Shown here piece by piece: positions 31,285 to 54,528 of a stretch of DNA of 54,705 nt. Source of the stretch: a virus (taxonomy: Duplodnaviria; Caudoviricetes); the IMG/VR virus record IMGVR_UViG_3300043444_000172, positions 1-54,705 of that record. One strand, 5' to 3'. Both the position numbers and the translations under genes were made by a program. Every line of letters starts with the position of its first letter. Position 1 is the first letter of the stretch. A model generated the notes under the pieces. That model was not told the origin of the DNA. It worked only from the letters and a program-made list of their open reading frames with translations, and searched no databases.

Positions 31285-34200
31285 TTATAATCCTAGAATC
31301 TTGGCCAGGTAGTTCTTTACTGCTCTGACTTGAGAAGCAGCGTATCCAGAACCGGAACCAAACTCCTCTGTTAGATAGTCTAGCAACTCAGCGTACTCTT
31401 CTCTAGTTAGATTGGTACCTCCACCAAACTTAGACAAGATAGTAGCCAAGAAACCAGCATCTGGCTTTGACGATTCTTTTTGAAGAATAGACTGTACAGC
31501 TGCACTAGGCTTTGGAACACTAACATCTGCCGCTTGAGCAGATGCTCCGCCACCCGGAGGTGGGTTAATTCCAGAGCCAGAGCCGCCACCAGGACCCTGC
31601 GGTCTATTGGCTAGCGAGAACACCATGCCATAAGCAAAGTCTCTAGCATCGTTGTCGATGCCAGTCTTTGGATCCCTACCGAATGCCATTATGACATTGT
31701 CGATTGGAGTCTGCAAAGTGTCATCGGTGTAGTATCTACCACTCTTTGGGTCGAAGTGGACGTCAGAAATAACTTTTCTAGTGCCGTCAAGCTCGAAGTC
31801 AGTGGTTGCTACAGTCAAACCACGACCTCTAGATGCGATTCCAAAGTCAGACATAATCTCCTGCATCAAAACTGTTGACACTTCAAAGTGTCCGTCGTTT
31901 GGATTTAGGATGTGCTTCTTGTCTTCTGGGTACTGCTTGCTCATGTAGCCCAAAGCTAGTCCAGGTACAGCAAGTGCTCGTTCGCCGCGTCCCATTCTCT
32001 GACCAGATAGGAAGGCAAAGTTTGGCAATGTCTCATCTTCTGTACCAGGGAACATAACTGCTCGGTCGTAGAGCCAAGCATGTTGAAGAGCACCAATGTT
32101 AGGCATGATGTGCTCTAGAACGTGCTGTACCTCATGCACCGCTGCGTCAGTTGCACTCGTGACATCGTCGTACTGCCTGCTTCTCTTGTTAGAGAGGTGT
32201 ACAGCGTAACCATCTGGCTCATCGGTCATATAGGCTCGCTTAACACCAGACATGATGTAAAGCTTCTTATCTTCAGCTTTCAGCTGAGCCAGAAGTCCTC
32301 GAATTACAGACGATGGGAGACCATCAAAGAACTCCTCAAGGGCCTCTTTCGACTTAAATGTGTCAACAGAGCGTAGCTTTAGCTTCCTCTTTAGGCTGTA
32401 GAGGTGGCCATCAAACTCATCAACAGATACATTGTCGAGTTCAACGCCTTCTTCAGCCATCACTTCTCTGTAAGCATCTCTAGCAGCCTTACCAACTACC
32501 GCGCCCATATTCATGTGCTTCTTTGCGGCATCAGTACTTGCTCGCTTAGCAGCTTCGAGTGCTTTCTGCGCAGTCTTAACTTTTGCATTTGTAGCGGGGT
32601 CATTTAGCGCAGTGTATGCATATGCAAACAGCGACTCGTTTTTATCAGTAGCTTCTTCTACTAATGCAGCCAGACTTCCTAGTCGCTTACCAGCGAGTTC
32701 TTTAGCTAACTTATCTCTATCTACTACACCATTAGGTAGAACAAACCCGTCAGCTGCCAACTTAGCCATTGTTGTTTTTCTAGAGGCAGCTGTAGAGAAT
32801 ACCTTTACGCCACTATCGTGGATAGCACGTACATCTTTCTTAGCCTGTTTAGTTGCATCCGAAGCCTTCCGAGAAACATCTGCAACTTCCTTGAATATTG
32901 TGTCGACATCAGCTGCGCTAGAGACATTGAGCTTTTCTCTATTTCTTAGAATGTCAATAAGCTTGTCATCTACTCTAGCTCGGATGTCAGAACCAACTCC
33001 AACAATATCGTTCTTAGCTTCTCTAGCTTCGTCAGTAGGCTTAACAGCGCGGAATTGACTGTCCTTTACTGGAGAGGTGTTGTCATCATTTAGATCTGCT
33101 GTCTTGTGGATAGCAAGAGTTCTTGATGCTGCTCCAGTAGTTGGGTCGATTCCAAGTCCGAGATCTCTAGCAGTCTCTCCTAGTGGAGTTAGAGGCTCAG
33201 CCTGCTTTGGACCTGGAGGCGATGAAGATAGAACCTTGTCAGTAGCAGGGAAGGTTACCTTGCTACCGTCAGAGAACGTAACCTGAACAACTCTGTTACC
33301 ATTCTTTGCTGTTCCAGTTCTAACACCCTTAATGGTCCCCATTCGACCACCATTAGGGTCCCAGAGGGTGTCGCCAGGGTTGACATCAGTTATTGGTGTC
33401 TCCTTTGTTGCCTTAGGGCCTCCAATAATTTGCTCTGCATACTTGGTAAAATCGATTGCACCGAAGTCAATAAAGTCGGGGTCAAAACCAATATTAGGAA
33501 TCGGTTCTCCGGTCTTACCGCTAATAATTTCTCCAGTATCGAAGTTGACAGAGTCACCTTCAGATAGCGAACGCTCTACCACACGCTGACCAAGCTTGAC
33601 AGTTCTTCTTCCAGATGTAGGTTCCTGATCTGGACTTGCTTTAGTTAGGTGGAATGTACTCAGCTTGATTGGGTTGTCAATTCCAGGGAACGATACGTAA
33701 ACATAGTTTCCGTATCCATAGTTTCCACTGTCATCTCGTTCAGCCTGAAGTTTCTGAACTACTCGACCGTAGCAGTACTCCTTTTGGTTGTTACCCCAGC
33801 GGACAACGTCTCCAACCTGAGAAATTTCTCCGCTAACGTAACGGTGAGGAATAACCTTAGTACCAGCGGCAGGAAGTACCTGTCGGTTGATAGAGTGGTC
33901 AATCCTAGCCAAAAGGTGCTCTAGTTCATTCTTGTCTAGATACGGGAACTTCTCCTGAACTGATCTCTTAACTACAGATCTAGCCACTTCTTTAGCTGCG
34001 TTTGTGTCAGGAATGCTTTCTACATAACCAAGAAGTGCCTGGAATGCAGCCAGCGAATCTTTCTGATCCAAGGCATCGTATAGTGAAGGCATTTCTTTTC
34101 GCATAACGCGACGGAAATTTTCACCATTTCTAGAAGTAGAGAGGTTGTGACGCTGATCTCTACCATTTAGTATGATGATCGCTTCTTCTTCTGGAGTTCT

Positions 34201-39147: not shown

Positions 39148-39969
39148 TTACAGGGTGTCGAGATCTTTGATCGAATTAACAGTTGCTAGAAACTCATTCC
39201 ATTTTTTAGACTGAGCGTATCTCGCGGTGTCAACAAAATCTCTAGTTAAGAAGTCCGAGGCGTCCTCGATCCACTTAGCATTAGAGTCAAGAGCATCGAA
39301 GATCTCGGTGGACTTTGCACCTTCGTCAATCATCTTGGCGATGCTTCCAAACTCGTCATACTCTTTGAGGTTGTTTTTAGCAATCTCGGCGAAGTTGATT
39401 GGCTCTTCAAGGTCGACTAGGTCATCTAGTGCGTCTGAAAGCTCGTTGTACTTAAAAGCAACCAGCTGCGAATCAAAGTCATCATTTTCTGGTTTTGCTT
39501 CCGCGAACTCTCTTAGTGCGGTGAACACAGTGCTCGACTCTAGGTAGCGTCGTATCTGCTCGATTGAGTCTCCACGCTCGATGCGGTACGCTAGCTCGCC
39601 AGTCGGGTCAAGTAGGTTGCCTTCATCGCCATTTATAACAAACATGTCTAGAGCAGCAACTAGGTTTAGGCGAGACAAGTCGTACGCACTGTAGTTGAGT
39701 TCTTTTGTAGGCTTAGACTCTTCAACTTCAAATGTGGCAACATTTCCAAGTCGCTCAGAAACGACTCCAGAAGCAACTAGAGCAGAGAGTCGAGCCTTAG
39801 AGTGTAGGTACTCGATGGAGTCTTTGTCATAGCTAAAAACTCGGTGGATTAGGCGGGATTCCCGTGGGTCAAGCGAGTATAGCTCTTCAAATAGAGCCTT
39901 AGCACCACTCTCTCCATAGAAAAAGTTAGATCTACGTGAAAATTCGTTATTGAATTCTGCATCTAACAT
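39148..39969 (-). CDS. Acidic helical hypothetical protein (273 aa) with two internal repeats
   Basis: TAATG-coupled to the upstream gene; DPTGELAYRIERGDS and DEFGSIAKMIDEGAK. Confidence 0.75.
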   Translation of the reverse strand: MLDAEFNNEFSRRSNFFYGESGAKALFEELYSLDPRESRLIHRVFSYDKDSIEYLHSKARLSALVASGVVSERLGNVATFEVEESKPTKELNYSAYDLSRLNLVAALDMFVINGDEGNLLDPTGELAYRIERGDSIEQIRRYLESSTVFTALREFAEAKPENDDFDSQLVAFKYNELSDALDDLVDLEEPINFAEIAKNNLKEYDEFGSIAKMIDEGAKSTEIFDALDSNAKWIEDASDFLTRDFVDTARYAQSKKWNEFLATVNSIKDLDTL

Positions 39970-41858
39970 TAAAGCTCCTTTGGAAGAAGGTCGGCATCTT
40001 TACTTTCATATAAAGATGTTGCAAGCTCTTTAGCTCTGTCAAACGGACTCTCATTGGAACCGATTGCTCTGTTCCATGCTGCATCTAGTGCTGGGATTAT
40101 TTCGTATCCAGCATCTGAGTACTCAGCAAGAGCAAAGATAGCTTGTTCTCTACTAGTATACTCTGTTTCTGGCAATAGTGTTATGGTCAACTCGCCAGAG
40201 TAGTCGTCTTCATAGTTAGTAGTCTGGTCTTCTGGCGTAAGAGTTGGAACTCCAGACGCCCTTACTGACTTCTTAGAAGACTTAGGGTGGGAAGCTGGAA
40301 GCAAGTCGTTATCAGTTGTGTACTTGCTGTTCTTAGGCGAGCCAGACTTGAGTAGGTGTAGGAATGCATTTACGCGAGCCATAGCCCATGAGTTACGGTT
40401 CTGGTCTGGGCGGTGGGAGGAGGAGAAGGCTCCAGCACCACGACGATAAACAGCCTTGAGCATACGCAAGCTAGCCTTGCGGTCAGACTTCTCGTTGTGG
40501 TTCTTAACCTTTTCAGAAAGAGCGTCTTCAACTTTCTTCGAGAAGTTGACGGTCTTTGAGCCGGAAGCAGAACCCTTAGGGTTTTTCTTCGAGCCGTAGA
40601 TTCGGTCTTTCTTAGGAGCTGGCTTTGAACCGGCAGTAGCAGTAATCGGCTCGTCGGTAAACGAATAAACCTCTGCTTCGATCTTGTTTTTGCCTTGTAG
40701 CTTGTGAGCAACAGTTCTGTGGTGGCCGTCAATTACTCGGTAGCCTGTGGAGGTTAGCCAGACTTTGATTGGCTTGTTCGAGTCGTAGGCGTCTTTTACG
40801 CGACGCATGTTTACAGTCCGCTGAGTAGGTGAAAGCTCGTTGACATCAACTTCATACTTGTCGTATGGTGGCTCTTCGTCGGCACGAGCCTTAACTTCAT
40901 CGCTAATCTTCTGGTATCTCTTATTGAAGTAGACGCCAGTACTGACATCCTCGTCATCGCCAACAGGAGCCTTAGAGATGTCAACTACACCATCTGGAAT
41001 TACTGCAAAACGGCATTTTCCTTCAGGCTCGACTTCGAAGTCGATGATGGCACATTCTGAGCCACCACGATAGAGAACGCAGTTACCACACTTGACGCCC
41101 ATCTCGGCGTACTTGTTGTCCTTACCTGGCTTGTAGCCGGCCCAGATTCCTGTACGGTCTTCGTTAAACTTTCCGTGCTCTTCAGCGATTTCAACAAGAG
41201 CGTCAGCTAGGTCCCACTCTTCTTCAACAATGTAACCGCCTGCAGCTACTGGCTCTTCTTTCTTGACATCCTCTGTGATTGGTCCGCCAGCTGCCCAGGC
41301 GTTGCAAGTGCGGCTTGCGGCACACTTGAAGTCAAGAGCGGTGCAGTAGCCAAGCTCAGCCTGGTCGATTGCGTCCCAAGCACTTTGCTCGCCAGAGCCA
41401 CCTTCGGCAATGCCGGTTTCGATGCAGTCTAGGGTCTTTGGACGGCGGTCAAAGAACACGCAGTTGCCGCAAATGCTCTTCTTTGCATCCTCTGTGTTAA
41501 CAAGGTCCCAGCGGTCAGCTTTATCTTCCCAGAAATCTTCGTTTGGCTCGTTTGGGTTGAGCGGGCCATATCCAACATTGTCGATCGCATTCTGACGGTT
41601 CTCGATATTAAGGACAATGTCCTGAGTTGCTGGAGGACACTTGCCTCCGTAGTCGGCATCAGCAATGATTACAGGTAGAAGTTGTCTAGGCTTGACAACA
41701 TTGTCTAGGTAGCTGGACGCCGTAACTGGCTTTTTCTTTGGAACTGGTTTAGCTATTTCGGAAAGAAGAACCCACTTACCGTCCCTGAGAACACGCATAC
41801 CACCGATGTCGCTCATGCGTTCACCGAGTGATGATTTTTCCTTTTTTTCTTCAGCCAT
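39969..41858 (-). CDS. Multi-domain head-associated protein: two Cys-rich domains, ParB-like domain, basic C-terminal domain
   Basis: CGNCVFF...GYC....FKC....TCNAW; CGNCVLY...C...GKCRF; ELSPTQ...IDGHHR; KAVYRRGAGAFSSSHRP...WAMARVNAF. Confidence 0.75.
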   Translation of the reverse strand: MAEEKKEKSSLGERMSDIGGMRVLRDGKWVLLSEIAKPVPKKKPVTASSYLDNVVKPRQLLPVIIADADYGGKCPPATQDIVLNIENRQNAIDNVGYGPLNPNEPNEDFWEDKADRWDLVNTEDAKKSICGNCVFFDRRPKTLDCIETGIAEGGSGEQSAWDAIDQAELGYCTALDFKCAASRTCNAWAAGGPITEDVKKEEPVAAGGYIVEEEWDLADALVEIAEEHGKFNEDRTGIWAGYKPGKDNKYAEMGVKCGNCVLYRGGSECAIIDFEVEPEGKCRFAVIPDGVVDISKAPVGDDEDVSTGVYFNKRYQKISDEVKARADEEPPYDKYEVDVNELSPTQRTVNMRRVKDAYDSNKPIKVWLTSTGYRVIDGHHRTVAHKLQGKNKIEAEVYSFTDEPITATAGSKPAPKKDRIYGSKKNPKGSASGSKTVNFSKKVEDALSEKVKNHNEKSDRKASLRMLKAVYRRGAGAFSSSHRPDQNRNSWAMARVNAFLHLLKSGSPKNSKYTTDNDLLPASHPKSSKKSVRASGVPTLTPEDQTTNYEDDYSGELTITLLPETEYTSREQAIFALAEYSDAGYEIIPALDAAWNRAIGSNESPFDRAKELATSLYESKDADLLPKEL

Positions 41859-42101: not shown

Positions 42102-42290
42102 CTACTTATCCCTTTCCGGCTTAGGGTTTATAAAATAAGGCTCGTTTAAAAACTTCTGTAGCTCGGGGGATAAGTCATCTTCAGACTCGGATGTCTCAAT
42201 CTCGACTGCCCAGTCAAAACCTATATCTAGAGGCACCTTGTATTTGTTGAAAAGGCGTGCTGCTTTTCTGCTTAACTCAGGATTTGCCAT
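42102..42290 (-). CDS. Small hypothetical protein (~62 aa), candidate immunity/partner protein
   Basis: MANPELSRKAARLF... overlapping the end of the giant gene. Start uncertain (ORF track gives 42308). Confidence 0.6.
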   Translation of the reverse strand: MANPELSRKAARLFNKYKVPLDIGFDWAVEIETSESEDDLSPELQKFLNEPYFINPKPERDK

Positions 42291-45200
42291 TGATAAATAC
42301 CTTTCCACGATTGAGTATGATTGTGTAATACTCGTTGTCAGGAGTTAGAGGAACTTTAAATCTGATTGCATCAATACCGAGCATGATGGCAATATTTGTG
42401 TAATCAGTCTCGTTGAAAAGTCGCCACTCAGCATCCTGAGATTCTTCGAAGGTGACCCCAGACTTATCGTATCCTCTAAAAAACTCTTGTAATTTTTCTG
42501 TAGCCCACTCACGTAGATCAGTAGCCTCATCGAAAGAAATTACATTAGCATCAGACATTAGTTTCATTTCCATAATACGATCTTCTCGATTAGAGTCATC
42601 ATCGCCTGTGTAAGTAAATGTAGTTTCTTTTTTATTAGTAGAGTAAGTTCCATTTCCAAAATAACCCTCTCCGGCAAACGGTGTATCCGAGGTTATATAG
42701 TCATCCATAAACTCCGCTGAAGTAAATCCACGATAGATAGACTCGCCGGACGCGGCATCGAACTCTTCTTGGCTCAGAACCTGAGGCTTATCGTTAAATC
42801 CTGATTTTTCCAGGAATACTGATTGAAGTACATTTCCCCTAGATTCGTCATAGTCTTCGTCGGCTTCAGTGAATATGTCTTTAATCTTCTTGTACCAGTT
42901 TTTAAACCCAGGTTCTATGCGCTCTTTTTTCTTCGTAGCTGTCTCTAGTCCGGTTTGTGCATCCCAATCCTCTTGGACTTTTAGATCCTTCTTAACTACA
43001 GAATCCTTTAACTCACGGTTTCTCATTACTTGAATTAGGTTATCTTCTTTAACGGCACCTACGGCTTCTACCTTCATTTCGCCGCCAATGACAACCATTT
43101 CTCTCTCGTCATAGGAGCCGACACCAGTAAATGAGTTGGATAGGATTTGCTCTACCGGGATTACGCGTCTCAGTAGGACTGCCCCCTTGTGATCGTCCTC
43201 TGGGTTAAACTTATCTATACCAGTTGCCTCTGAATCGTATCCTCCAGTAGCAAACCAATAAGCATGACCGTCAGACGTACTCCAAGAAGACAGAGGTCTT
43301 GACTGGACATCAACTTCCGTGAGTTTGTCATCAGACAAAGTCTTACCTAGGGACGCATCATCGATTCCTCTATAGAGGACAACTTCCGTAACACCGGCTT
43401 CCTTGAAACGTTTCTGGGTCTGCTCGTACTGAGCCTGTAAAAATGCTGAAAGAACGCCACCGTACTCTTGCTTAATTTTTTCAACTTCGGCTTTAGTCTT
43501 TGGAGCGGAGTTCCAATCACGGGCATTCTTAGTATCAAAAACTACTTCAGCTATGTCTTGAATAGCTAATGAACGAATATTACTTCCGTTAGACGAAGTG
43601 GCCCAGTCAGTAATCAATGTAGAGGCTGCCATAGTTGCACGTTCAAATTCTGTCAGCTCTTTATATAATTTAAATTCTGTAACTGCATCTTCGGAAGAGT
43701 TAGCTTTTTCAAGTATCTTTCGTACGTCTTCCGTAGTGAAATTAAAATCACCAGTGCTTGACATAGCTTTTATATCGGCGTCATTAAGAGGGAATCTACG
43801 TAGTGCCCTAGCTAGAGGAACAAAACCAATTGCCCCATCTGTTACCATAATTTGACCAAACGGAACACTACCCTCCCATTCGGTAACGTATGGATCATTT
43901 GTGCCAGTATCATACGTGCTCACCAGGCTTTGGTTGAGTGCATCAAGCTGCTCGATGCTGATACCGTTGTCCAACATGCTCTTAGCAGTTTCAGTTGCAA
44001 CCTCGGATTTTAGTTCTCCTGGAGTCTTGTCGGTCTTCCAGAACTCTTCTGAACTGCCGTCTGTAGTTCTAAGCGTCTTGCTCTCTACAGCTTTTTCAAC
44101 TTCGGGTTTTTCAGGCTCGGCTTCTGTAGGTGCTTCTCTTTGCAACATAGGGTCAAATGTCCCTACATGGCGAATCTTTACCTTAGTAGGCACATCTGGG
44201 TCGTCACTCTTCTCAACCGAAACAACTTCATATCTACCAGCAGATACAAACTCACCAGGAATGGCCTGAGGGTCGAAAGCAATTAATGGAAGCGACCTTG
44301 AACCAGGCTCAAGCTCATACTCAACAGCAATACCTCCGCCGGCAATATCAGAACGCCTCATCTCCCAATACTGCTCAGCAGCGGAACGTACAACAGAAAA
44401 AGATGAGAAGGGGAGCTCGATAGTTGCTCCAGGCTGGTAACTATCTAATGTTGCCTGGTTTGTTCTAATGCCTCTAAACAAGGATTCGTTGATTTCGGGA
44501 GATGCCTGAATTAGCTCCAGTCCAGCAATGATTTCTCTAGTTTTGCTTGGAAGTTTGGTGATGTCCTTTGGATTTATCTCCGTATCACCCTGAAGCAGCT
44601 CTTTAAAAGCGGCATTGGTGTCAGAAACATACTCAAAACTTGAAGGCCAGCCTTGAACAAACCATGCAGCGTATTTATCTCGGAACTCTAGGTCTTTAGC
44701 TGCATCACTCTGAGGGTCAGAGATGATGTTGCCTTCTTCATCAATCTCCTGCGGGGTATCCCAGCCTGCTTGACGAGCAGCCTCGACTGCAGTCTCTAAA
44801 ATGTCCTGCAAAGCAGGAGTACCGCTACGTACATCTATAGGGTCCATCTTTCGACCATAAGCACTGATTGCTCTACTATCTGCTTCTTCTTTTTCGTCTA
44901 ATCCAGTCAGGGCTTCTGGCTTACCCTTCGGCTGCAATTCAGCTTCAACAAAGTAGTTAAAAAAACCGTTCTCTTCGCCATCTTCGTCAATGTGAGGCAC
45001 TTTACGAATACCAACAATTTTTAATTCTGACCCTCTTGGCAGAACTACTTCGTCTTCCAAACTCGCATAACCATATCCAGCCCTCGGGACCCCTAGAGCT
45101 TTACTGCCAGCTGGCAGGTTAATCACCCAAAACGAGGTGTTTCTCATGCTAGGTTCGGAAGCTTTGATAGCTCCATCTCCAGCCCCGAGACCAGGTCCAA

Positions 45201-48200
45201 AACTACGTAGTGCAATATCTTTATTGCTGCTAGTAGACATAAAACCTGGATCAGAGAATACATCACCTGGGTTTAAGCTCTCTAGTAAATCAGTCATCGT
45301 AACGTCTTTATCTTCAAACTTACCTAGGTCAGTCATCCCTCTAAATACATAAGTACCTCTGGAGATGTCACCATATGTGTCAATAAGTTCGTCTAGATTA
45401 GCAATCTTTTCTTTGACATCTTCGACTTTTTCTGGACTCATGTCTTCAGGCCCGTAGCGGAGAAGGTTGTTGAAGTTTCTAAACTGGGTACTAGCGTAGG
45501 CTTGTAGTGCAGCGTGTTGGTCGCTAGGAATATCAGACTGCTCGAAATTACGAGGAACTTCACCATCATCTACACTGTCAATGTCTAGGTAGTCGCCATC
45601 AACAAAAGCATCTAGAAGTCGGGACTCACCCTTACCTGTTGTTAAACCTTCTTTAGGCTCCCAATCGGTGGTTGAAGCCTCTGGGGTAGAGTCTGAAGAC
45701 TCCTTACTTGCAAGTTCTGGGTGGCAAATAGTACATTTACTACTCTGACCATTGTGTAGATTGTTCTCGTTGAGCGATCCTGGGGGGCCATCGACTACCG
45801 GTAGGTGGCCTAGATGTTCTAATTCACCAGGCTTAATTGTACGTTCTACATATAAGTTATCACCATTACGTGTATAAGGATCTATCCGGAGCTCGTCTTT
45901 AGGGACTGATATACGGAATATATCTGCACCATCGCCAGCTTCACCAGATGTATATCCATTTGCTAGAAATACACCGTATCTAGTTTTAGTGTAGTTATCT
46001 GTTCCAACCTTATCCGTGATTTTTGGTTTAATTCCATTTTTTTCAATTTCATCAAACCTTGCCGGAGGAGCCGAGTGTCTAAGTTCCTTTATTTCGATCT
46101 TATCTCCGGTACGTTTTTCCATATCGTCAACGAATTCAGTCGGGCTTACCTTATAGGATGTATAGGACCCACCACTCAACTTACTCATATATTCAGTAAG
46201 CGCCCTCATACGGCGATTATGTTCTTTCCCCTCTTCTTCAGTGACATCCCTAGCTCCAGCTTCACCAGAAGAGGCGTACCAACGAGCTTTTCTTAGTTCA
46301 TCAGGAGTGAAGTGGTAATCCTTTCCATTGAAGATGTAATCTATACCATCCTCTTCACCAGGTATAAGAAGTTCTGAAGACTTTTCTTCTGTTTCCGTAG
46401 GTACTGAATATTTTTCTGGATTTTTTTCAATATCATCCAGTATGCTCTGTACCGAAGGAGCATTCTCTTCAGTACTATCAGTAAGTTTATTTTTATAATC
46501 AATTAGATATTGACGACGAGCCTTAAGTTTTTTCTTGAGCTCCCTATTATCATTAGGGTCAGAAATATATTGATCAACAAGCTCATCAATACGCTCGGGA
46601 GTAATATTTTCTACTCTATCGATACTTTCGTTCTCTGCCTCAGGTGTTATGTCTTCAAAAACTACAGAGGTAGCCATATTTTTAGTCTCGTCCTTAAGAC
46701 TCTCGATCTCCGGGACAGTGTCCCCGAACTCTGCACCCTTTCGCTTACCCTGCGCCCTATATAGTAGAGAACCTCCAGAATCGATGCGTACAGGCTTATT
46801 GTCTTTATCAAAAGATAGGTTATCTAAACCTAGACCAACTACGTCCCAGTTTGCGAGCCATGCATCAACAGCAAATCCATCGTGAGCCGAATCAGAGACT
46901 AGACCAGAGCTACCATCCCTAATCTTATCCATATATGATGTAAGACCAGACTCTACCCAGTCCCTGTAGGTCACCGGGAATTCATCAATTACACCTTCTT
47001 TAACTTCTAGAGCATCAATCCTTGCTTCTCTATATAGTGCAGATGCTAGGCGCTCATTGTCACCGCGCTCTTTAGCCTGAATCTTTACATAGTACTGCTT
47101 ACCAGTTTTAGGGTCTTTGTAGATACCGCCTGGGTTGGAGCCTAGGTTGCCAGAAACCTTCTCGAAGTTGGAGAAATCGAGCGGCTGATCAGCGGTATCT
47201 ACTTTAGGCTCTTCAGTTAAATCTTTAAATCCATCCCAGCGGATTTCTTCACTAAGAATCCATTTTCCTAAGTTGTAATCCCCCGTCTTGAGATTGGCAA
47301 CATCTAATGGAGTTGGGTAGTCATTGTCGCCAAACTTAGAGCTCTCAAACTTTGCCTTGATATTTCTTAGGACCTTAAGTATGTCTTCCTTGTCTTTTTC
47401 CGGGAAAGAGCTACCTGGCTGCGTGAGTATGTTGATGTTGTAGTCAATATTAGATATAACATTCTTAGGCTCGGTCTTCCACTGGAATCCAGCCTTGGCC
47501 CATGCATATGAACCACTTTGCTCTCCGGCCGTAAGTTCAATTTTTGAAATACCTAGATCTTTGTACACCTCTTCGGATAGTTTTCCGAATTCTGTACCAA
47601 AACCTTTTCCGCGATATTCTGGTTTAAGGCTGATTCCGTCGTGAACTACAGAGTAAGTGCCATCTTGGTTCTTATAGATATAGCGACTAAATCTACCTAT
47701 AATATTGTCGTCTTGCTCTACCACCCCAGAGAACTCAACTACATCAATATCTTTACCATTAATAGTTTTTGTTATCTTTCGACCGGTAGTTACTCTTACA
47801 TCAAAATCACCAATTTTTCTATTTCCAAGTTTTTCCTCGAAAATAGAGAGAATCTTTTTATTATCTTCTACAGCAAAAATATCTTCTACAGACTCTACTG
47901 GTTTTTCTACTTCTTTAGACGTAGTTTCTTTAGCTTGTCCGTAATCAAGATCTATGCGTAAGATCCCATCCGAGTCCCTGTAAACATTAGTTACAGTGAA
48001 TTTTGGCATCATGGGAAGTAGAACTTCTTTTTCTAATCCAAATACTGTGTTGTCGAACTCGAATGGGGTTCCAGTTGCTCCGTCTTTAGTGGTTATTTTC
48101 ATAACTACCGCCGAGTTTGTTCTGTCTTTGTTTGAGCCTAGGGTAGCAAATTCTTCAGCTTTTACTTGGTCCAGAGTCGTGGACGTGAACCATCCTGGGC

Positions 48201-50280
48201 TGGTTAGTCTATCGCCAGGCTTTAGGTTAGATAGATACTCCTCCCAGTCGGCAGCGTCCTCACCCATTGCACCAAGGTCTAACCCCCTATATAGAACCGT
48301 ACCTTTTGGTAGCGGCTCGGTAGAAGTTAGTTGATCTAAGTTATCTATATGCTTTTGTAGCTCTGCCTGCTCTTCTTGACTTCGACTTGCAGTGTTGTAT
48401 TTGTCTTCCATGAAATTCTTTAGTTCCATGTAGCCCCAGCCGCGATACATAGATATAGCGTCTTTTTCATCCTGAGTGCGTTCTGGAATAGGGAGATCTG
48501 GAATGCCACTTATATCTGAATAGGTGTATTCAAGATCTTCTGGTATGAACTCTTCTGGAGTACGTATGCTCGATCCAAGCAGTGGGTGGTACGACTCGCC
48601 ATCTATTTCAACCACTACTGGTGCATAGCGTCTAGGTCTCATGTCGCGGGCTGCTAAAAGCCTAGAGGTATCCATCTCTGGATCTTTAAATAAGTATTTA
48701 CCTTCACCCTTGTCGTAGATTAAAGTCACAGGAGAGGTGAAGCCGTTCTCCGCTATCTCTTTCTTCTGAGCCTCTACAAGATCCTTGTTGTATGTAAAGT
48801 TTTCTTTATCGAGATCTAGCACATCCTGGGCATTAACATAGCCAACAGCACCAAGCTTGCTACCTGGAAGAGTGGCATTGGTGGCAGCCGAATTTTTAGT
48901 TGATTCGACATCTAAGTTTGGATCTATTTTGGAATATTTATTTTCTGCATCCGCAATTTCTTTTCCGCCACTGTCGACTATTTTTTGTTTGCGGTAGAAC
49001 CCTTTTTCCTCTAAAACATTGTCTATATTGTCTATGTCTTCAGTTTCGAATATCTTCGCTACTTCTGGATCATCCAGTATGTCTTTAACATAGAGCTTTA
49101 ATTTTCTGAGCTCGAGTCTGTCCCAGGTGCTTAATTCTTTTTTCTCACCCTGGGCTGGTTTTTCTGGTTCAACGTCTAAGCGCTTTAGACCCTCCCACTC
49201 GACGTTGCTATTTAAAACTTCTTTGCCGATAGGCAGATCTGCAATCTCTTTTGGAGTTGGGTAGTTTGGAGAGCCAGGCTCGTTATTATCAAAGCGTTCT
49301 AATATGCCTTTAAGAGCTTCCATTTGGTCTGGATCATATTTCCAGGCCTCGCCTAGCATCTTTCTAATGCTGCTGATTACAACAGATGGCTTTCCATTCC
49401 AGTCATATCCAGCCTTGGCCCAGGTGTAAGCGCCATTTTCATCTGCTGCAGTTATTTCTATCTTAGAAATACCAAGTTTTTTATACATTGCTTCGGAAAG
49501 TTTGCTGAACTTTGTACCAAAGCCAGTGCCTCTACTCTCTTCTTCGATATTTAGAGAGGTGTGTCCAGCGCTATATGATCCGTCTTTGTTTTTAGTTATT
49601 CTGCGGAAGAAGTATCCGACTTTATTGTCATTTTCATCTAGAATCTCTCCGTTGACGAATACATCATCCGGGTAGCCATCAGACTTTACAATGCTGACGT
49701 TTCTAACTTTTAGCTTTCCATAGTCAGTGTTTTCGAGTAGATCTACTATCTCTTTTACTGTCTTGTTGTCGAGATTTCTAGTATTCTCATTCGCTGGTAG
49801 AGCCAGTAAGTCTTCGACCGTTCCGGTTATGGAGTCAGCGTTCGGCTCGGGCTCAGGCTCTGTTGTCTTGGAAGAGTCTTTTTTGTTTAAAGCTGCTTTA
49901 GTTGCTTTAGCTATTCGCTCGTAGTCTTCATCAGGAATGATGGCATCGACTACCTCAAACTGGGTTGACGGGATTGGCAGATCGATGTCGCCTAGAATCG
50001 GGTGGCCTTCTATGCGAATCAATGCTACGTTAGGCGCAACAGCGTCGATAATTTTTCCATGGCCGGAAACGCGGCCTATGTTTTCTAGCTCAACGTCGAA
50101 TAATGCGTTGCCATACATTTTGGCAAATCGCATGAAACGGTCTTTTAGCTGCTTACGCCAAAAGCCTTTGTTAGCACCCTCTCCGCCTGGAATGTCCGGC
50201 CCGACATCTGCAACCAGTCCTTGGGGCTGAGCAGAAGAGGAGTTACCAGCACCTAAGACGTCTCTTAGGTATTCAGACAT
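42277..50280 (-). CDS. Giant polyvalent effector protein: 2 GNAT-like, ParB-like, kinase-like and up to 6 ADP-ribosyltransferase-fold domains
   Basis: R-S-E motifs LYRG/FTSTT/EKEVLLP, VFRG/FMSTSS/EDEVVLPRG, LFRG/FSSFS/GEFV and LYRG/LSSWST/DEREMV; RGxGFG...WAKAG twice; DAWLANWD..RIDSG. ATG at 50280 follows the Dps stop. Confidence 0.85.
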   Translation of the reverse strand: MSEYLRDVLGAGNSSSAQPQGLVADVGPDIPGGEGANKGFWRKQLKDRFMRFAKMYGNALFDVELENIGRVSGHGKIIDAVAPNVALIRIEGHPILGDIDLPIPSTQFEVVDAIIPDEDYERIAKATKAALNKKDSSKTTEPEPEPNADSITGTVEDLLALPANENTRNLDNKTVKEIVDLLENTDYGKLKVRNVSIVKSDGYPDDVFVNGEILDENDNKVGYFFRRITKNKDGSYSAGHTSLNIEEESRGTGFGTKFSKLSEAMYKKLGISKIEITAADENGAYTWAKAGYDWNGKPSVVISSIRKMLGEAWKYDPDQMEALKGILERFDNNEPGSPNYPTPKEIADLPIGKEVLNSNVEWEGLKRLDVEPEKPAQGEKKELSTWDRLELRKLKLYVKDILDDPEVAKIFETEDIDNIDNVLEEKGFYRKQKIVDSGGKEIADAENKYSKIDPNLDVESTKNSAATNATLPGSKLGAVGYVNAQDVLDLDKENFTYNKDLVEAQKKEIAENGFTSPVTLIYDKGEGKYLFKDPEMDTSRLLAARDMRPRRYAPVVVEIDGESYHPLLGSSIRTPEEFIPEDLEYTYSDISGIPDLPIPERTQDEKDAISMYRGWGYMELKNFMEDKYNTASRSQEEQAELQKHIDNLDQLTSTEPLPKGTVLYRGLDLGAMGEDAADWEEYLSNLKPGDRLTSPGWFTSTTLDQVKAEEFATLGSNKDRTNSAVVMKITTKDGATGTPFEFDNTVFGLEKEVLLPMMPKFTVTNVYRDSDGILRIDLDYGQAKETTSKEVEKPVESVEDIFAVEDNKKILSIFEEKLGNRKIGDFDVRVTTGRKITKTINGKDIDVVEFSGVVEQDDNIIGRFSRYIYKNQDGTYSVVHDGISLKPEYRGKGFGTEFGKLSEEVYKDLGISKIELTAGEQSGSYAWAKAGFQWKTEPKNVISNIDYNINILTQPGSSFPEKDKEDILKVLRNIKAKFESSKFGDNDYPTPLDVANLKTGDYNLGKWILSEEIRWDGFKDLTEEPKVDTADQPLDFSNFEKVSGNLGSNPGGIYKDPKTGKQYYVKIQAKERGDNERLASALYREARIDALEVKEGVIDEFPVTYRDWVESGLTSYMDKIRDGSSGLVSDSAHDGFAVDAWLANWDVVGLGLDNLSFDKDNKPVRIDSGGSLLYRAQGKRKGAEFGDTVPEIESLKDETKNMATSVVFEDITPEAENESIDRVENITPERIDELVDQYISDPNDNRELKKKLKARRQYLIDYKNKLTDSTEENAPSVQSILDDIEKNPEKYSVPTETEEKSSELLIPGEEDGIDYIFNGKDYHFTPDELRKARWYASSGEAGARDVTEEEGKEHNRRMRALTEYMSKLSGGSYTSYKVSPTEFVDDMEKRTGDKIEIKELRHSAPPARFDEIEKNGIKPKITDKVGTDNYTKTRYGVFLANGYTSGEAGDGADIFRISVPKDELRIDPYTRNGDNLYVERTIKPGELEHLGHLPVVDGPPGSLNENNLHNGQSSKCTICHPELASKESSDSTPEASTTDWEPKEGLTTGKGESRLLDAFVDGDYLDIDSVDDGEVPRNFEQSDIPSDQHAALQAYASTQFRNFNNLLRYGPEDMSPEKVEDVKEKIANLDELIDTYGDISRGTYVFRGMTDLGKFEDKDVTMTDLLESLNPGDVFSDPGFMSTSSNKDIALRSFGPGLGAGDGAIKASEPSMRNTSFWVINLPAGSKALGVPRAGYGYASLEDEVVLPRGSELKIVGIRKVPHIDEDGEENGFFNYFVEAELQPKGKPEALTGLDEKEEADSRAISAYGRKMDPIDVRSGTPALQDILETAVEAARQAGWDTPQEIDEEGNIISDPQSDAAKDLEFRDKYAAWFVQGWPSSFEYVSDTNAAFKELLQGDTEINPKDITKLPSKTREIIAGLELIQASPEINESLFRGIRTNQATLDSYQPGATIELPFSSFSVVRSAAEQYWEMRRSDIAGGGIAVEYELEPGSRSLPLIAFDPQAIPGEFVSAGRYEVVSVEKSDDPDVPTKVKIRHVGTFDPMLQREAPTEAEPEKPEVEKAVESKTLRTTDGSSEEFWKTDKTPGELKSEVATETAKSMLDNGISIEQLDALNQSLVSTYDTGTNDPYVTEWEGSVPFGQIMVTDGAIGFVPLARALRRFPLNDADIKAMSSTGDFNFTTEDVRKILEKANSSEDAVTEFKLYKELTEFERATMAASTLITDWATSSNGSNIRSLAIQDIAEVVFDTKNARDWNSAPKTKAEVEKIKQEYGGVLSAFLQAQYEQTQKRFKEAGVTEVVLYRGIDDASLGKTLSDDKLTEVDVQSRPLSSWSTSDGHAYWFATGGYDSEATGIDKFNPEDDHKGAVLLRRVIPVEQILSNSFTGVGSYDEREMVVIGGEMKVEAVGAVKEDNLIQVMRNRELKDSVVKKDLKVQEDWDAQTGLETATKKKERIEPGFKNWYKKIKDIFTEADEDYDESRGNVLQSVFLEKSGFNDKPQVLSQEEFDAASGESIYRGFTSAEFMDDYITSDTPFAGEGYFGNGTYSTNKKETTFTYTGDDDSNREDRIMEMKLMSDANVISFDEATDLREWATEKLQEFFRGYDKSGVTFEESQDAEWRLFNETDYTNIAIMLGIDAIRFKVPLTPDNEYYTIILNRGKVFINGKS

Positions 50281-50282
50281 GG

Positions 50283-50735
50283 TTATCGAGTACCGAGTGA
50301 AGAGCGGAGCTGCCAGCCCCACTTCTTGTGCATATCGTCACGGCCGGCTAGAAAATCAGCAATGCCCTGCTCGTTGCACATCGATGCAAGCTCGAAAGCT
50401 CCAAGCACACATGCATTTAGAGATGTGTTGATGTTGACTAGAGACTCGAGCATCTCGACGCAGTCGCCAAAAAGACGAGGCTCGTTTCCAATGCATGTCA
50501 TCTCAACGAAATCAGTTAGGAAGTAAGGAGCGTCATATCCGAGTTTGCGGATGCTTTCAGCGAGCGGGTCAATGGCACTCTCGAAGTCTTCGTAGATTTC
50601 ACCGAAGAAGTCATGCATCTGAGTAAACTCGACGCCCTTAACGTTCCAGTGGTAGCCCTGGGCGATAGCCTTTGCAGTTACTACGTCAGAAAGTAGGTGG
50701 CTAAGCTTCTCTACTAGTTCAACTTTGTGTTCCAT
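50283..50735 (-). CDS. dps: Dps family ferritin-like DNA protection protein
   Basis: YHWNVKG.EF..MH.FF.EIY......D.LAE.IRKLG and C-terminal HKKWGWQLRS. Confidence 0.92.
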   Translation of the reverse strand: MEHKVELVEKLSHLLSDVVTAKAIAQGYHWNVKGVEFTQMHDFFGEIYEDFESAIDPLAESIRKLGYDAPYFLTDFVEMTCIGNEPRLFGDCVEMLESLVNINTSLNACVLGAFELASMCNEQGIADFLAGRDDMHKKWGWQLRSSLGTR

Positions 50736-50738: not shown

Positions 50739-52493
50739 TTATACCTCGGGTTCAGCCAGTGGAATTGGCGGTTGGGCGGGTGGAGGAGTTCCTTCTACTA
50801 CAGGAGTGGCTGGTTGTGCTCCTGGAATAGGACCACCCTCTAGAAGTTGTTCAATGTCAGGTGTCATTGGAGCTGGGTTGCTAGCCTGAGATGTCGATCG
50901 AACTAGCTCCATAATTTCTGGGGATACTGCCGACAACATTGCCTCTGTGAGCTCAGGTGTAATCATACCCTTACTGATGATGAGGCGAAGTCCGAGCTCC
51001 TGAGGGGTAGGAGCGTCCTGGTCAGAGAAGCCGTGGGCACGACGCCATGCGTCATACGAAACAGCCATCTTCTCGAAGCCCGAGTCAGCATCTGCTGCAC
51101 GGTCGTTACGAGTAGCAATTAGGCTAGGGTCATACCAAACGTGAAGACGCTTTACATCTGCCTCGGAGTAGCCATTGGCAATTAGGTATGGACGCAAGTA
51201 AACAACAGTTAGTGCGTCTGCAATGAGAAGCATCATAGGCTCGATGTGCGCCTTGTAGAGGGCTTCATCGATCTGAAGAGCGTTAGAGTACTTAACGTTC
51301 GCAAGACCCGTCACAACGTCTTTAGGGACGTCTAGACCCTGCATGATGCGCTCTAGTACACGGTCAGCACGAGCAACTAGGGATGCGTCGAATGAACGCT
51401 CGAACTTGAACTGCTTGATCTTATCACCAAGCTCAGCTGGACCACGAATAATCAGCGGAACAACAGCCGAAGCCGAGTCTTCGTCCTTGATTGGGGTGGT
51501 CATAGCGTCAATCAGCTGGTCCTCAAAGTCGTCAGCTGACTCCTCTGGGTTGTACTGCTCGTTGTAGTTACCATCCTCGTCGTATGGGTAGTCTGGGTCT
51601 GGAGCAGCTGCAACAGAAAGACCATCTGGCAAGTACAAAGCACCTGCGTTGAGGCGTGAGCGGGCTGTAGCACGGAATGTGCGGTTAAGTAGGAGTAGTT
51701 CCGCACAAAGGTCCAAAAGGCCGCGTAGCGAGCTGTCAGACTCCTGGGAGTAGCGAGGGTGGGCTCTCCAAACGCGACCAATGAAAGCATCCTTAGGCAG
51801 GACAATGGCACCCTTACCAGATGACATGGCAGAAGGAACTCCACCACCAACTTCGCGGCGAGGCTGGATAACGTAGTTACCCTTCGAGTCAACCTGAAGC
51901 TCGTCAACCGAACGGATGTCCCAGCTCTCTGGTAGCCCAGTGCCGATACGCTCTGGAACCTGAACGAGATAGCACTCGCCAGTAACCTGCAAGTTAAGAG
52001 CAGCGTCCTTGAGAAGACCTGACTGGCCTCCGTAGGCAGAGTCAAGACGAGCAAGAGCACGCTTAGCTGCGGCAGCCAGCTGAGGATCGATGGCTAGTGA
52101 TTTGTCTACAGAGATCGGAGCCTCTGCTGGGTCATCTACAACAGCTGCGTAAAGGCGGATACGTGATACGACAGACGCCACAAGGTTAAACGCATATTTA
52201 ATTTCACCAATTGAGTCATAGTACTCCCATGCTTCGGTTTGCCAGCTAGAAGAAGCTGACTGGCGGCGAGATTTGAAAAGCTCTGCTTCGCCCTTGTCGC
52301 CGATCTTAATCTGAGCTGCAGCAGCTGTAAGCGGGCGAGGCGAGTTGTAAGAGACTGGTTCGGCGTAAACAAGTCCAAAAGAGTCTACAGAGATCCCAGG
52401 GGCAACCGGCGTAGCGGTTCTTGGTGCCGATGCACGCAAACCGGTGGCAGTTCTACGCTTAGGCTGCTCTGCGTTCTTTTTAAAAATTCCCAA
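50739..52493 (-). CDS. Portal protein
   Basis: WQTEAWEYYDSIGEIKYA...SRIRLYAA, LQVTGECYL, RVWRAHP....DS, SRL.AG.LY.P motifs of actinophage portals; located downstream of the terminase. Confidence 0.85.
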   Translation of the reverse strand: MGIFKKNAEQPKRRTATGLRASAPRTATPVAPGISVDSFGLVYAEPVSYNSPRPLTAAAAQIKIGDKGEAELFKSRRQSASSSWQTEAWEYYDSIGEIKYAFNLVASVVSRIRLYAAVVDDPAEAPISVDKSLAIDPQLAAAAKRALARLDSAYGGQSGLLKDAALNLQVTGECYLVQVPERIGTGLPESWDIRSVDELQVDSKGNYVIQPRREVGGGVPSAMSSGKGAIVLPKDAFIGRVWRAHPRYSQESDSSLRGLLDLCAELLLLNRTFRATARSRLNAGALYLPDGLSVAAAPDPDYPYDEDGNYNEQYNPEESADDFEDQLIDAMTTPIKDEDSASAVVPLIIRGPAELGDKIKQFKFERSFDASLVARADRVLERIMQGLDVPKDVVTGLANVKYSNALQIDEALYKAHIEPMMLLIADALTVVYLRPYLIANGYSEADVKRLHVWYDPSLIATRNDRAADADSGFEKMAVSYDAWRRAHGFSDQDAPTPQELGLRLIISKGMITPELTEAMLSAVSPEIMELVRSTSQASNPAPMTPDIEQLLEGGPIPGAQPATPVVEGTPPPAQPPIPLAEPEV

Positions 52494-52790: not shown

Positions 52791-53146
52791 TATTTAGCTT
52801 TCAACGTGTTTAAAGTTCGGGTTGGGTTCCAACTTCTAAGTCTAGACCCACATCCGCAGTTTGTGTCGCGCTTGAAAGCGAGCATTTTGCCACTTTTAGT
52901 GACAATTTTGCTCTCACCCTTCAAATCTTTCTCAAAGATATCATATTCTTCTTGAAAAATCACCCTCGCACCCTCTGGAGAGTCGACTGCAACCATAATT
53001 AGGTCGCTGTCGATGACAATTCGACACTTGTCGACCATAAATGAGCCCTCAGTGGGCGGGGCAACTGTAACTTCTTCTAGTGTTTCGACCAATCCAGGTG
53101 CAACTGCAACAAGAATAGACGGAAATACGTCAAAAATGATTCTCAA
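52790..53146 (-). CDS. Hypothetical protein (118 aa) with CGCG motif
   Basis: Overlap-coupled to the terminase stop and to the next gene; C-terminal NCGCGSRLRSWNP. Confidence 0.65.
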   Translation of the reverse strand: MRIIFDVFPSILVAVAPGLVETLEEVTVAPPTEGSFMVDKCRIVIDSDLIMVAVDSPEGARVIFQEEYDIFEKDLKGESKIVTKSGKMLAFKRDTNCGCGSRLRSWNPTRTLNTLKAK

Positions 53147-54528
53147 CGGACTCTAAACCCCTTTCCGGTTCCGATTTTACGGTCTGCAAGGCTCTTGGCA
53201 CGGATTTTTCCACCCGAGAAGCCAGCTGGAGGCTTAATTAGTAGTGCAGTAAGGGCGTGAACCAGTGCGTCGACGCGGTCCGGGGACTTTCCCTCGCCTG
53301 GAATCCAGGTAATCATCTGAGTTTCGAGGTCAGTCAATGCGTGACCGATGTGGTGGACGCGTTCCTGCTGATAGGCCATCGTAATTGGCTCAGCACGGAG
53401 CTGTTTACCCTGTTTTGAGTGAACTTCAAGCACTTTGATGGTCGGATCGATGGTATTGATAGCATTTCGGACCAAAGCACCACCCTGGTTGACCTCAGCG
53501 ATGACTGGGCAGCCCCATTTACGAGCCATGCGAACAACTTGGTTGGCCCAAACGTCTGGAGAGCCATGAACGGAGGCATCTTCGAGCACCCAAGCCTGAC
53601 GCTTGTACAAATCGTGCTCTGCAGTAGACGCAACTACAACAATTCCACATTCGTCGCGAGGATTTTCGGCAACAGAGGGGTCAACGCCGATACAACGGAG
53701 TGGAGTTGAGGTTGGAAGATAGAGTTGGCGGCCAGCTTCGATCATTTCTTCTGTCCACATCGCTCCTTCCATCGCTTCGAGCATTTCACCGAAGAGTTCC
53801 TGGCGAGCGAGGGCTGTACCCTCGTAAACGCCAAGCATTGTGTCTAGATATGTGCCAGAGAGGTTTCCAGCGTTGTCCATAGTCGAACCACGAGTAATCA
53901 CTACTCGGTCAGTGCGGGACTCTTCAATAAGTTTGTAGAGAAGCGGAGTACGCTTCGGGGTGGTGGTAACCAGAATCTTTGGGTGAGCACCAAGACGAGT
54001 ACCAACACGCAAGTTATCAAACGCGGTCATGCCTGCAGCGTCAGGAGTCTGACGCCAGGCTGCAATCTCATCGCCCCAGGCGTGGGTGAACTGAGGACCA
54101 CGAAGCGAGTCTGGCTCGTCAGCTGTGAATAGCGAAGCTACGTTTCCATTGGGCCAGGTTAGGCGTCGCTTGGACGGCTCGTAGAGCGGACGCTCGGATG
54201 GAGGCGTGACATTCATAATGCCCGACTCACCTTCAACGATAACGTCACGCACGTCACCCGCGGTACGGGCTACAAGTGCGAAACGACGTTGGCCGGTATT
54301 GGTATATCTGGCTTGCTCTCTCACCCATTCAGACGCGAGTCTTGTTTTACCAAAACCACGTCCGGCAAGTACAAGCCAGATATTCCAATCTCCGGGTGGA
54401 GCTTGCTGCTCTGGTCTTCCCCAAACGGACCAGTCCCACATAAGTGCTTCTGGATCCATTCCGGCAAGGGCAGCTAGTTGCTCTTCAGGTGGCAGAAGAG
54501 CAATGTGCTCCATGATTGATTTACCCAT
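53143..54528 (-). CDS. terL: Terminase large subunit
   Basis: AGRGFGKT (Walker A), LRGPQF..AWGDE (Walker B), TTTP, IGVDP and SPDRVDA nuclease motifs. Confidence 0.95.
   Translation of the reverse strand: MGKSIMEHIALLPPEEQLAALAGMDPEALMWDWSVWGRPEQQAPPGDWNIWLVLAGRGFGKTRLASEWVREQARYTNTGQRRFALVARTAGDVRDVIVEGESGIMNVTPPSERPLYEPSKRRLTWPNGNVASLFTADEPDSLRGPQFTHAWGDEIAAWRQTPDAAGMTAFDNLRVGTRLGAHPKILVTTTPKRTPLLYKLIEESRTDRVVITRGSTMDNAGNLSGTYLDTMLGVYEGTALARQELFGEMLEAMEGAMWTEEMIEAGRQLYLPTSTPLRCIGVDPSVAENPRDECGIVVVASTAEHDLYKRQAWVLEDASVHGSPDVWANQVVRMARKWGCPVIAEVNQGGALVRNAINTIDPTIKVLEVHSKQGKQLRAEPITMAYQQERVHHIGHALTDLETQMITWIPGEGKSPDRVDALVHALTALLIKPPAGFSGGKIRAKSLADRKIGTGKGFRVR

Follow-up and report, generated by a model that had tools for sequence, protein, structure and literature searches.

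The window analysed here is the whole of IMG/VR virus record IMGVR_UViG_3300043444_000172 (54,705 nucleotides (nt); Duplodnaviria; Caudoviricetes), and it raises the question of what a tailed phage does with a single polypeptide that carries six domains of the ADP-ribosyltransferase (ART) fold and is encoded among the genes for its own virion. The gene, referred to below as the giant, is read here, with a probability of about two in three, as coding for a phage polyvalent effector protein in which conserved N- and C-terminal domains enclose reshuffled host-modifying modules. Catalytic-type residues appear, from the sequence, to be intact in each of its ARTs. An earlier note on this DNA had proposed a single polypeptide with up to six ART-fold domains of different classes, and the analysis follows that proposal domain by domain before turning to the gene family, the locus and the explanations that compete for it.

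The giant open reading frame (ORF) lies on the minus strand in one frame and ends with a stop at 42277, with possible starts at a GTG (50322) and at an ATG (50280, residue 15). The ATG is the likely start, because it lies 2 nt past the stop of the upstream Dps-like gene, the database form of the protein (P0002, 2667 amino acids (aa)) begins there, and homologues align from residue 15. Residues are numbered throughout in the 2681-aa frame from the GTG (P0001), nt being 50322-3(i-1) for residue i. All sixteen motifs on which the earlier note was built were recovered in this one ORF where it had placed them, namely LYRG (residue 677), FTSTT (712) and EKEVLLP (764) in ART1, LRHSAP (1414) and YGVFLA (1449) in the H-type domain, VFRG (1659), FMSTSS (1694) and EDEVVLPRG (1756) in ART3, LFRG (1948), FSSFS (1972) and GEFV (2023) in ART4, LYRG (2316), LSSWST (2344) and DEREMV (2405) in ART5, and IYRG (2529) and YFGNGTY (2554) in the C-terminal domain (CT). 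The motif matches in the six regions exceed chance.

Four of the six domains are ARTs of the arginine-serine-glutamate (R-S-E) type and come from at least three subfamilies. ART1 matches Pfam ADPrib_exo_Tox at an expectation value (E) of 1.1e-13 and 51.4 bits against a gathering cut-off of 23.4, and ART3 matches the same model with a whole-protein E of 2.6e-31 and 108.9 bits, the best stretch being residues 1597-1784; ART3 also matches PHROG 3895, annotated as ADP-ribosyltransferase exoenzyme toxin. The two domains are 24% identical (E 9e-12), each holds the complete set of R, S-T-S and ExE, and in the columns of their joint family the Arg and the Glu are each kept in 51/51. ART5 belongs to a large family in which, among 194 domain instances sampled, the Arg is present in 193 and the second Glu of ExE in 192. 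The profile of this family matches that of ART1 in hhalign with a probability of 91.8% and with LYRG, S-x-S and ExE in register. Pfam DRAT (PF07357) scores ART5 at 20.6 bits (E 2.8e-4), below the gathering cut-off of 25, and 11 of 24 short ART5 relatives match DRAT at E ≤ 0.01 (best 2.6e-7); on these profile scores ART5 is related to the DRAT family and is not filed as a member of it. A search of PDB sequences with the ART5-family profile returned 0 matches at E ≤ 10, and one with the whole giant reached a best E of 0.62, to an unrelated chain.

ART4 is the most divergent of these domains and fits the R / S-T-S / ExE pattern in part, with R1950, S-S-F-S and one Glu in P-G-E2024. Its small-family profile aligns with the ART1 family in hhalign at 96.1% (E 2.8e-9), with the R, S-x-S and E regions matched to each other, and ADPrib_exo_Tox is found in 24 of its 30 nearest clusters in the ESM Atlas (score 0.96). 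The family hidden Markov models (HMMs) of ART1 and ART3 match it weakly (iE 0.016 and 0.008, small database). The Pfam library gave no match to ART4, neither ART4 nor ART5 matched Pfam ADPrib_exo_Tox at E ≤ 10, and a search of viral contigs with the single ART4 sequence found no relatives. An ART fold for ART4 and ART5 is nonetheless supported by the profile comparisons. Because ART4 has a single Glu only, its acceptor chemistry may differ from that of the ExE ARTs. In the relative P0003 a Pfam-type ART takes the place of ART4, directly ahead of a block formed by the m3 module, ART5 and CT.

The H-type domain has seven stand-alone homologues (P0172-P0178; 230-298 aa, 42-57% identical), which share with it the invariant motifs L-R-H-S-A-P, G-V-F-L-A-N, E-R-T and E-x-E-H and the invariant residues H1416, F1452, E1493 and E1500. 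Its AlphaFold2 (AF2) model, from an 8-row alignment, has a mean predicted local distance difference test (pLDDT) score of 72.8, with core blocks at 71-95. The best Foldseek rows against the PDB are KptA/Tpt1, the TASOR pseudo-PARP, PARP13, PARP12/14, PARP1, DarT1, TreTu and cholera toxin. VIA-align, run over 48,161 chains, gave 67 with Z ≥ 2, led by KptA (6.5), mouse Tpt1 (5.7) and Scabin (5.2), and by their titles at least about 40 of the best 50 of these 67 rows are ARTs, PARPs, Tpt1/KptA or ADP-ribosylating toxins. The KptA match (Z 6.5, root-mean-square deviation (rmsd) 2.6, 86 residues aligned) places model positions 35-172 on chain positions 82-180, the NAD-binding C-lobe. The comparison supports an ART fold closest to KptA/Tpt1 and the PARPs, a conclusion drawn from the uniformity of the match list and not from the Z values themselves. 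The assignment rests on fold, because sequence methods give no link to other ARTs: hhalign against the ART1 and ART3 families gave a probability of about 1%, the domain had no match in Pfam, the family profile had 0 matches to PDB sequences at E ≤ 10, and viral contigs searched with the single H-type sequence yielded no relatives. KptA/Tpt1 enzymes are RNA 2'-phosphotransferases with two lobes and a catalytic Arg-His-Arg-Arg tetrad, and they act on nucleic-acid phosphates. They share with the H-type domain a conserved His in the first core strand, but the C-lobe alone is matched and identity is about 16%. The list of neighbours would fit a nucleic-acid target.

CT was modelled with AF2 from a 22-row alignment at a pLDDT of 88.1 and a predicted template modelling score (pTM) of 0.83. 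Over 53 instances of the domain, R2531 is kept in 46 (His in 1), G-N-G-T-Y2560 in all 53 and G-x-D2651 in 52, together with an N-R-G motif. In the model R2531 and Y2560 lie in the first two core strands and D2651 just ahead of a late strand (positions 213-217 of the segment). Judged from this secondary structure, and not from a superposition, the site would be R-Y-D, a variant of the H-Y-D site of polyvalent-protein ARTs. In Foldseek against the PDB, chain B of the cyanophage A4 pre-ejectosome ranks first for CT, and below it come PE-like toxins, exotoxin A, diphtheria toxin, tankyrases and PARPs. VIA-align gave 59 chains at Z ≥ 2 and 21 at Z ≥ 5, with A4 chain B at 7.5, diphtheria toxin at 7.2 and 7.0, cholix at 6.7 and exotoxin A (ExoA) at 6.5, and further down ParT (6.0), MbcT (5.7), tankyrase (5.6), a RES toxin (5.5) and PARPs. 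Among the predicted viral structures of BFVD there were 26 Foldseek matches at E ≤ 1e-3, of which the top ones are uncharacterised phage proteins (1.5e-11); those named ART-PolyVal or PolyVal ART stand at ranks 16, 17, 18, 23, 24 and 26 (E 2.8e-4 to 8.4e-4), and the list includes a 'capsid maturation protease and MuF-like fusion protein' of Microbacterium phage Schubert. ART-PolyVal is also found in 24 of the 30 nearest ESM Atlas clusters (score 0.92). CT had no match in Pfam, and the C-terminal family aligns with the ART1 family in hhalign at 81%, over the first four strands only. Against a two-sequence MuF alignment and a single ART-PolyVal sequence, both very shallow targets, hhalign gave it a probability of ≤ 2.3%, and a search of PDB sequences with its profile gave 1 match at E ≤ 10, which is unrelated. 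These models and searches support an ART fold of the diphtheria-toxin/PARP/ART-PolyVal kind. ART-PolyVal (PF18760), of the diphtheria-toxin/PARP (H-Y-E/D) clade, is thus a fold neighbour of CT, which has G-x-G-x-Y and a conserved Asp before the late strand; ART-PolyVal differs in having a His in strand 1, at the position where CT mostly has Arg.

The closest structural match of CT is to a capsid-internal giant. Residues about 1263-1602 of A4 chain B (PDB 9k3a; PMC12002296), a podovirus ejection protein, align with CT over 148 residues at 14% identity and rmsd 6.2. From its residue numbering and a mention of Cys1715 of gp27 in that paper, chain B is presumably gp27 (PMC12002296). The term 'ADP-ribosyl' is absent from the main text of the A4 pre-ejectosome paper (PMC12002296), and an ART-like domain in this ejection protein may have gone unremarked.

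Taken over the six domains, the count proposed in the earlier note is borne out with differing strengths, two passing a Pfam cut-off and four being backed by profile or fold comparison. So is its assertion of different classes, which here come out as four R-S-E domains, one H-type domain like KptA/Tpt1 and the PARPs, and one C-terminal domain like diphtheria toxin, the PARPs and ART-PolyVal. The note had advised structure prediction and Foldseek as a check, and for the H-type domain and CT, on which these were run, the neighbours were almost all ART-fold proteins. It had also ranked these two calls as its weakest; the ART calls stand, and the ranking does not, since after folding their support equals that of ART4 and ART5. 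Not mentioned in it were two GNATs, a kinase-like domain, an N-terminal domain (N-domain) common to a second giant of the locus, and the published concept of polyvalent proteins, which already takes in phage polypeptides with many ARTs. The functional proposal of the note, by which the divergent copies would modify several host targets and possibly nucleic acids, is plausible.

The frame around these domains is the part that relatives keep. An exhaustive search with residues 1810-2681, the C-terminal third, found 1,462 representative proteins at E ≤ 1e-3. Modules were mapped with local HMMs over 177 proteins, a biased sample chosen by similarity to parts of the giant, and at least one module was found in 176 of them. 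A layout that begins with the N-domain and ends with CT (N...CT) is present in 19 of the 177, the giant included, with 0 to 8 ART modules between. The smallest N...CT protein (P0047, 341 aa) consists of N-domain and CT only. A minimal N+CT gene also occurs upstream of the terminase at 898..3102 of contig L006, which has a separate N-domain giant after Dps. The highest ART counts are 12 in P0027 (7059 aa), 9 in P0005 (4285 aa), 7 in P0003 and 6 in the giant; P0005 has seven ADPrib_exo_Tox stretches by Pfam alone. The metagenomic P0027 carries 11 domains of the ART5 type, two GNATs and the C-terminal ART-fold domain, which makes up its 12 ART-fold modules.

A close relative allows this turnover to be followed. 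The viral contig L003, which encodes P0003, has a portal 87% identical to that of the window and keeps the order portal, Dps, giant, 629-aa ORF, second giant. Its giant is without GNATs, has ART modules in another order and number, and is 41% identical in the N-domain, and it is 74% identical in the last third (m3-ART5-CT). By these comparisons the module turnover is the mosaic pattern expected of conflict genes.

The N-domain, with its invariant G-x-N-x-G-F-W-x-x-Q-x-x-D, is recognised by its local HMM in the ART giant (3e-45), at the N-terminus of the second giant of the window (2e-18) and in three head-module ORFs of the metagenome-assembled Actinomycetia phage DSL-LC01. Stand-alone forms are nearly absent (1 protein, of 105-336 aa). 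It had no match in Pfam, and hhalign against MuF, a weak comparison with a two-sequence target, showed no similarity (probability ≤ 2.3%). It is a candidate capsid-targeting or anchoring module.

Between the frame domains the giant also carries acetyltransferase and kinase-like modules. GNAT1 and GNAT2 are paralogous (38% identity, E 6e-43), and GNAT2 matches Pfam Acetyltransf_1 at residues 866-946 (E 5.9e-6, 27 bits against a cut-off of 20.7). The kinase-like domain had no match in Pfam; its Gly-rich loop, K1080, E1090, D1153/N1158/D1160 and D1181-x-G-G are conserved in 23-26 of 26 and would fit the ATP site of protein-kinase-like enzymes. No other part of the giant is shared as widely as this domain, which occurs in proteins of Gordonia, Pseudomonas, Yersinia, Aeromonas, Escherichia and Morganella phages and also in proteins with ADPrib_exo_Tox or MuF. 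The phages that carry it are of about 90-120 kb, and the proteins in which it lies are often annotated only as ADP-ribosyltransferase. Two further modules travel with ARTs. The m1 module, without a match in Pfam, precedes an R-S-E ART in every relative of the gathered protein set that carries it, and a BLAST block of residues 393-800 (m1 and ART1) is common to P0003, P0005 and P0006. The m3 module and ART5 are both covered by many matches of the representative search, for example P0029, P0038, P0051 and P0071. The coordinates of all features are collected in Table 1.

Table 1 Modules of the giant and neighbouring genes in the window, with residues of the giant in the 2681-aa numbering
Feature	Position (nt)	Strand	Residues, sites and remarks	Basis
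Whole giant gene, polyvalent protein (proposed)	42277..50280	-	2667 aa (2681 aa from GTG 50322)	
N-terminal domain	49705..50280	-	15-206; invariant G-x-N-x-G-F-W-x-x-Q-x-x-D	Local HMM
GNAT acetyltransferase domain 1	49156..49725	-	About 200-389	PHROG acetyltransferase match 228-296
m1 module, unassigned fold	48493..49125	-	400-610	
ART1, R-S-ExE ART	47923..48495	-	610-800; R679, S714-T715, E764-x-E766	Pfam ADPrib_exo_Tox
GNAT acetyltransferase domain 2	47197..47817	-	About 836-1042	Pfam Acetyltransf_1
Kinase-like domain	46429..47202	-	1041-1298	Motif columns
H-type ART-fold domain	45673..46323	-	Block 1334-1550, beta core about 1410-1510	AF2 fold comparison
ART3, R-S-ExE ART	44914..45591	-	1578-1803; R1661, S1696-T-S, E1756-x-E1758	Pfam, PHROG
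ART4, divergent R-S-E ART	44131..44874	-	1817-2064; R1950, S1973/S1974/S1976, single E2024	Profile comparison
m3 module	43636..44115	-	2070-2229; accompanies ART5 type in many relatives	
ART5, R-S-ExE ART, large DraT-related family	43021..43638	-	2229-2434; R2318, S2345-S2346, E2406-x-E2408	
C-terminal ART-fold domain, terminal module conserved in family	42280..42933	-	2464-2681; R2531, Y2560, D2651	AF2
Terminase large subunit	53143..54528	-		
Portal	50739..52493	-		
Ferritin/Dps-like gene	50283..50735	-		Pfam Ferritin 1.6e-14
629-aa ORF	39969..41858	-	DGHHR at residue 377 of the ORF	Pfam DUF5824
Second giant ORF	31285..39048	-	2587 aa	
1490-aa protease-containing ORF	26010..30482	-		

The giant gene is a resident of the head module. 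The order along the minus strand is terminase, portal, Dps, giant, the 629-aa and a 273-aa ORF, second giant and 1490-aa protease ORF, and downstream of the last lie genes for the major head protein, major tail protein, adaptor, tape-measure and tail fibre. The closest deposited phages by DNA are Microbacterium phage Pumpernickel, which covers 59% of the terminase-portal query at 66% identity, and phage DSL-LC01, in which the portal and protease genes are separated by one for a hypothetical protein of 3,289 aa. An artefact of mis-assembly or ORF fusion was considered and rejected, since the layout recurs in independent contigs.

The Dps-like gene wedged between portal and giant is uncommon in a head module, and the portal-Dps-giant order is seen again in L003 and L006. 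The second giant carries a UvrD-like superfamily 1 (SF1) helicase (Pfam, residues 505-1136) and HEVQH, an HExxH motif, at residue 2305 (nt about 32136); its N-domain is that of the ART giant, and it appears to be another polyvalent protein encoded at this locus. Homologues of the 629-aa ORF, whose DGHHR motif we take to be ParB/sulfiredoxin-like, adjoin the giant gene in L003, L004 and L005. The 1490-aa ORF is an unusually large protease-containing fusion, in which residues about 670-1080 match PHROGs annotated as portal protein, head maturation protease and virion structural protein, and it shares phrog_2859 with the 629-aa ORF.

If the giant is a polyvalent effector, it would be made late and built into the capsid through its conserved terminal domains, and it would enter the host with the DNA, either intact or once the prohead protease has cut it. 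Inside the host it would draw on NAD+, acetyl-CoA and ATP and modify several macromolecules of the cell simultaneously. Arginine is the usual acceptor of R-S-E ARTs that have ExE. Protein arginines would probably be the targets of the three ExE domains; ART4 and CT would probably use other acceptors, and the KptA-like domain may act on the ends of nucleic acids. Packaging is favoured because of the position in the head module and the analogy to polyvalent proteins, and residence in the capsid, likewise by analogy, because CT matches the capsid-internal A4 protein. A number of observations weigh against this reading. The giant has no MuF and no packaging domain that a Pfam scan recognises. Neither fold-based domain has a Foldseek match in the PDB at E ≤ 1e-3, the best being 3.6e-3 for the H-type domain and 3.2e-3 for CT, and the VIA-align Z-scores, none above 7.5, fall in the range where the tool warns of a mere common arrangement, so that the argument rests on the uniformity of the lists. 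The H-type model is of moderate quality, its pLDDT of 72.8 being that of the best of five models, the other four of which stand at 41-63. PF18760 (ART-PolyVal) matches neither CT nor 13 members of its family, although the same model detects P0022, and CT has Arg where this nearest named family has His. ART4 is without an ExE or QxE pair and has only three relatives in the gathered set (among them P0033, 52% identical, and P0086, 33%).

The resemblance to A4 chain B can also be taken further, to a structural internal-core or ejection protein that would build, with the second giant, a capsid-internal body or a trans-envelope conduit and in which most of the ART-like domains would be architectural or binding modules and not enzymes. 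That the A4 chain is the top structural neighbour of CT (Z 7.5; Foldseek 3.2e-3), that the gene lies in the head module, and that the N- and C-terminal domains are conserved around a dispensable enzymatic middle, as P0047 with N+CT only illustrates, all speak for it. Purely structural modules would not be expected, however, to keep catalytic R/S/ExE and Y/D residues, as hundreds of family members do; with its tape-measure and major tail protein the phage is no podovirus in need of an ejectosome; and structural termini are compatible with enzymatic cargo. We consider this explanation unlikely. An enzyme that stays unpackaged, like T4 ModA/ModB, and acts late in the producing cell, for example in late protein modification or a block to superinfection, appears less probable again. 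It would be equally compatible with late-gene co-transcription, and no packaging signal was recognised in the Pfam scan, but the position between portal and protease/capsid, the N-domain common to several head-module ORFs and the MuF-headed analogues P0013 and P0020 point away from it.

What the ARTs modify is a separate matter from where they act. Fast module turnover between relatives as close as the window and L003 (portal 87% identical) is typical of arms-race genes, and 6kyf_A, titled 'anti-CRISPR protein' and presumably the ART AcrIF11, is among the neighbours of CT (Z 4.6). Both would suit an anti-defence arsenal that ADP-ribosylates host immune components or defence-related nucleic acids instead of taking over transcription or translation. 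This is a sub-case of the polyvalent-effector explanation that differs in targets only, and in that specific form it is rather doubtful. Very little speaks for cargo of the polymorphic-toxin kind, used in inter-bacterial competition in the manner of MuF toxins: the related giant P0013 carries MuF and an ART, and the modular C-terminal variability resembles that of polymorphic toxins, yet the giant is without MuF, no small immunity-like ORFs follow the ART modules, which all lie inside one ORF, and the contig looks like the full virion module of a tailed phage. Such a role is highly improbable.

The polyvalent-effector reading has a bolder form, which we put forward tentatively. The N...CT proteins could be a distinct and widespread class of capsid-borne 'cassette carriers', in which the N-domain and the R-Y-D domain would form part of an internal capsid body, as the match to the gp27-like A4 chain hints, and which would be loaded with up to about a dozen swapped ART modules from three clades, among which a KptA-like one would ADP-ribosylate nucleic-acid ends. 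If so, one injected polypeptide would strike protein and nucleic-acid targets simultaneously. In its plainer form the reading, suggested by the giant and its family, is that a single polypeptide allows phages of (probably freshwater) actinobacteria to deliver whole batteries of domains for ADP-ribosylation, acetylation and phosphorylation. For the discovery of targets the giant provides six ART domains that have diverged in nature and have clear catalytic residues, and any role of its conserved N/C scaffold in encapsidation is open to testing.

To our knowledge, T4 Alt is nearly the only ART for which experiments have shown packaging in the head. That protein is the model of an ART packaged in the head and injected to modify RNA polymerase and other host proteins, according to the sections on it in two surveys (PMC5512222, PMC9503650). 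It is an R-S-E ART encoded with late genes, as the giant probably is, but it has a single ART domain where the giant has six, and packaging of the giant is inferred. No similarity to T4 Alt was seen at the BLAST level, and no T4-type phage is among the 24 matching phage records, in which the matches fall on the kinase-like, ART5 and GNAT regions. The 2022 survey describes, in its passages on phage ARTs, Alt/VIP2 ARTs that form fusions with MuF and whose genes lie close to those for portal and terminase (PMC9503650). Fusions of MuF (SPP1 gp7) to ARTs have counterparts among the relatives of the giant, since P0013 and P0020 have an N-terminal MuF together with the giant's kinase-like module; Pfam Phage_Mu_F (PF04233) detects both and has no match in the giant, searched whole and in segments.

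The nearest published system is that of the polyvalent proteins, described in the article of Iyer, Burroughs, Anand, de Souza and Aravind (2017, PMC5512222) as carrying ART, GNAT and kinase domains and as predicted to be packaged and injected. According to the text of that article their ARTs occur in one to many copies, with 12 in one prophage protein, have an active site of H (strand 1), Y (strand 2) and D (strand 5), and are said not to include R-S-E ARTs (PMC5512222). The giant resembles these proteins in being very large and multidomain, with ART, GNAT and kinase-type modules, in being encoded with virion genes and in being mosaic between orthologues. It holds several unrelated effector-type domains in one polypeptide, terminase, portal, protease, major head, tail and tape-measure genes lie around it, and its architecture is mosaic in the comparison with L003/P0003. 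An N...CT frame was not described in the literature searched, which extended to the article and not to the supplementary and FTP architecture lists of PMC5512222, where such proteins might be contained. The giant also has no zincin peptidase in its ORF, the HExxH motif being in the neighbouring giant. Compared with the polyvalent proteins as the article presents them, four of its six ARTs are R-S-E, one is KptA/PARP-like and the HYD2-like one is R-Y-D, so that the giant and its family suggest that R-S-E ARTs do join polyvalent proteins, contrary to the 2017 survey. The giant thus differs from that system in mixing three ART clades and in setting them within an N...CT frame of its own, without MuF.

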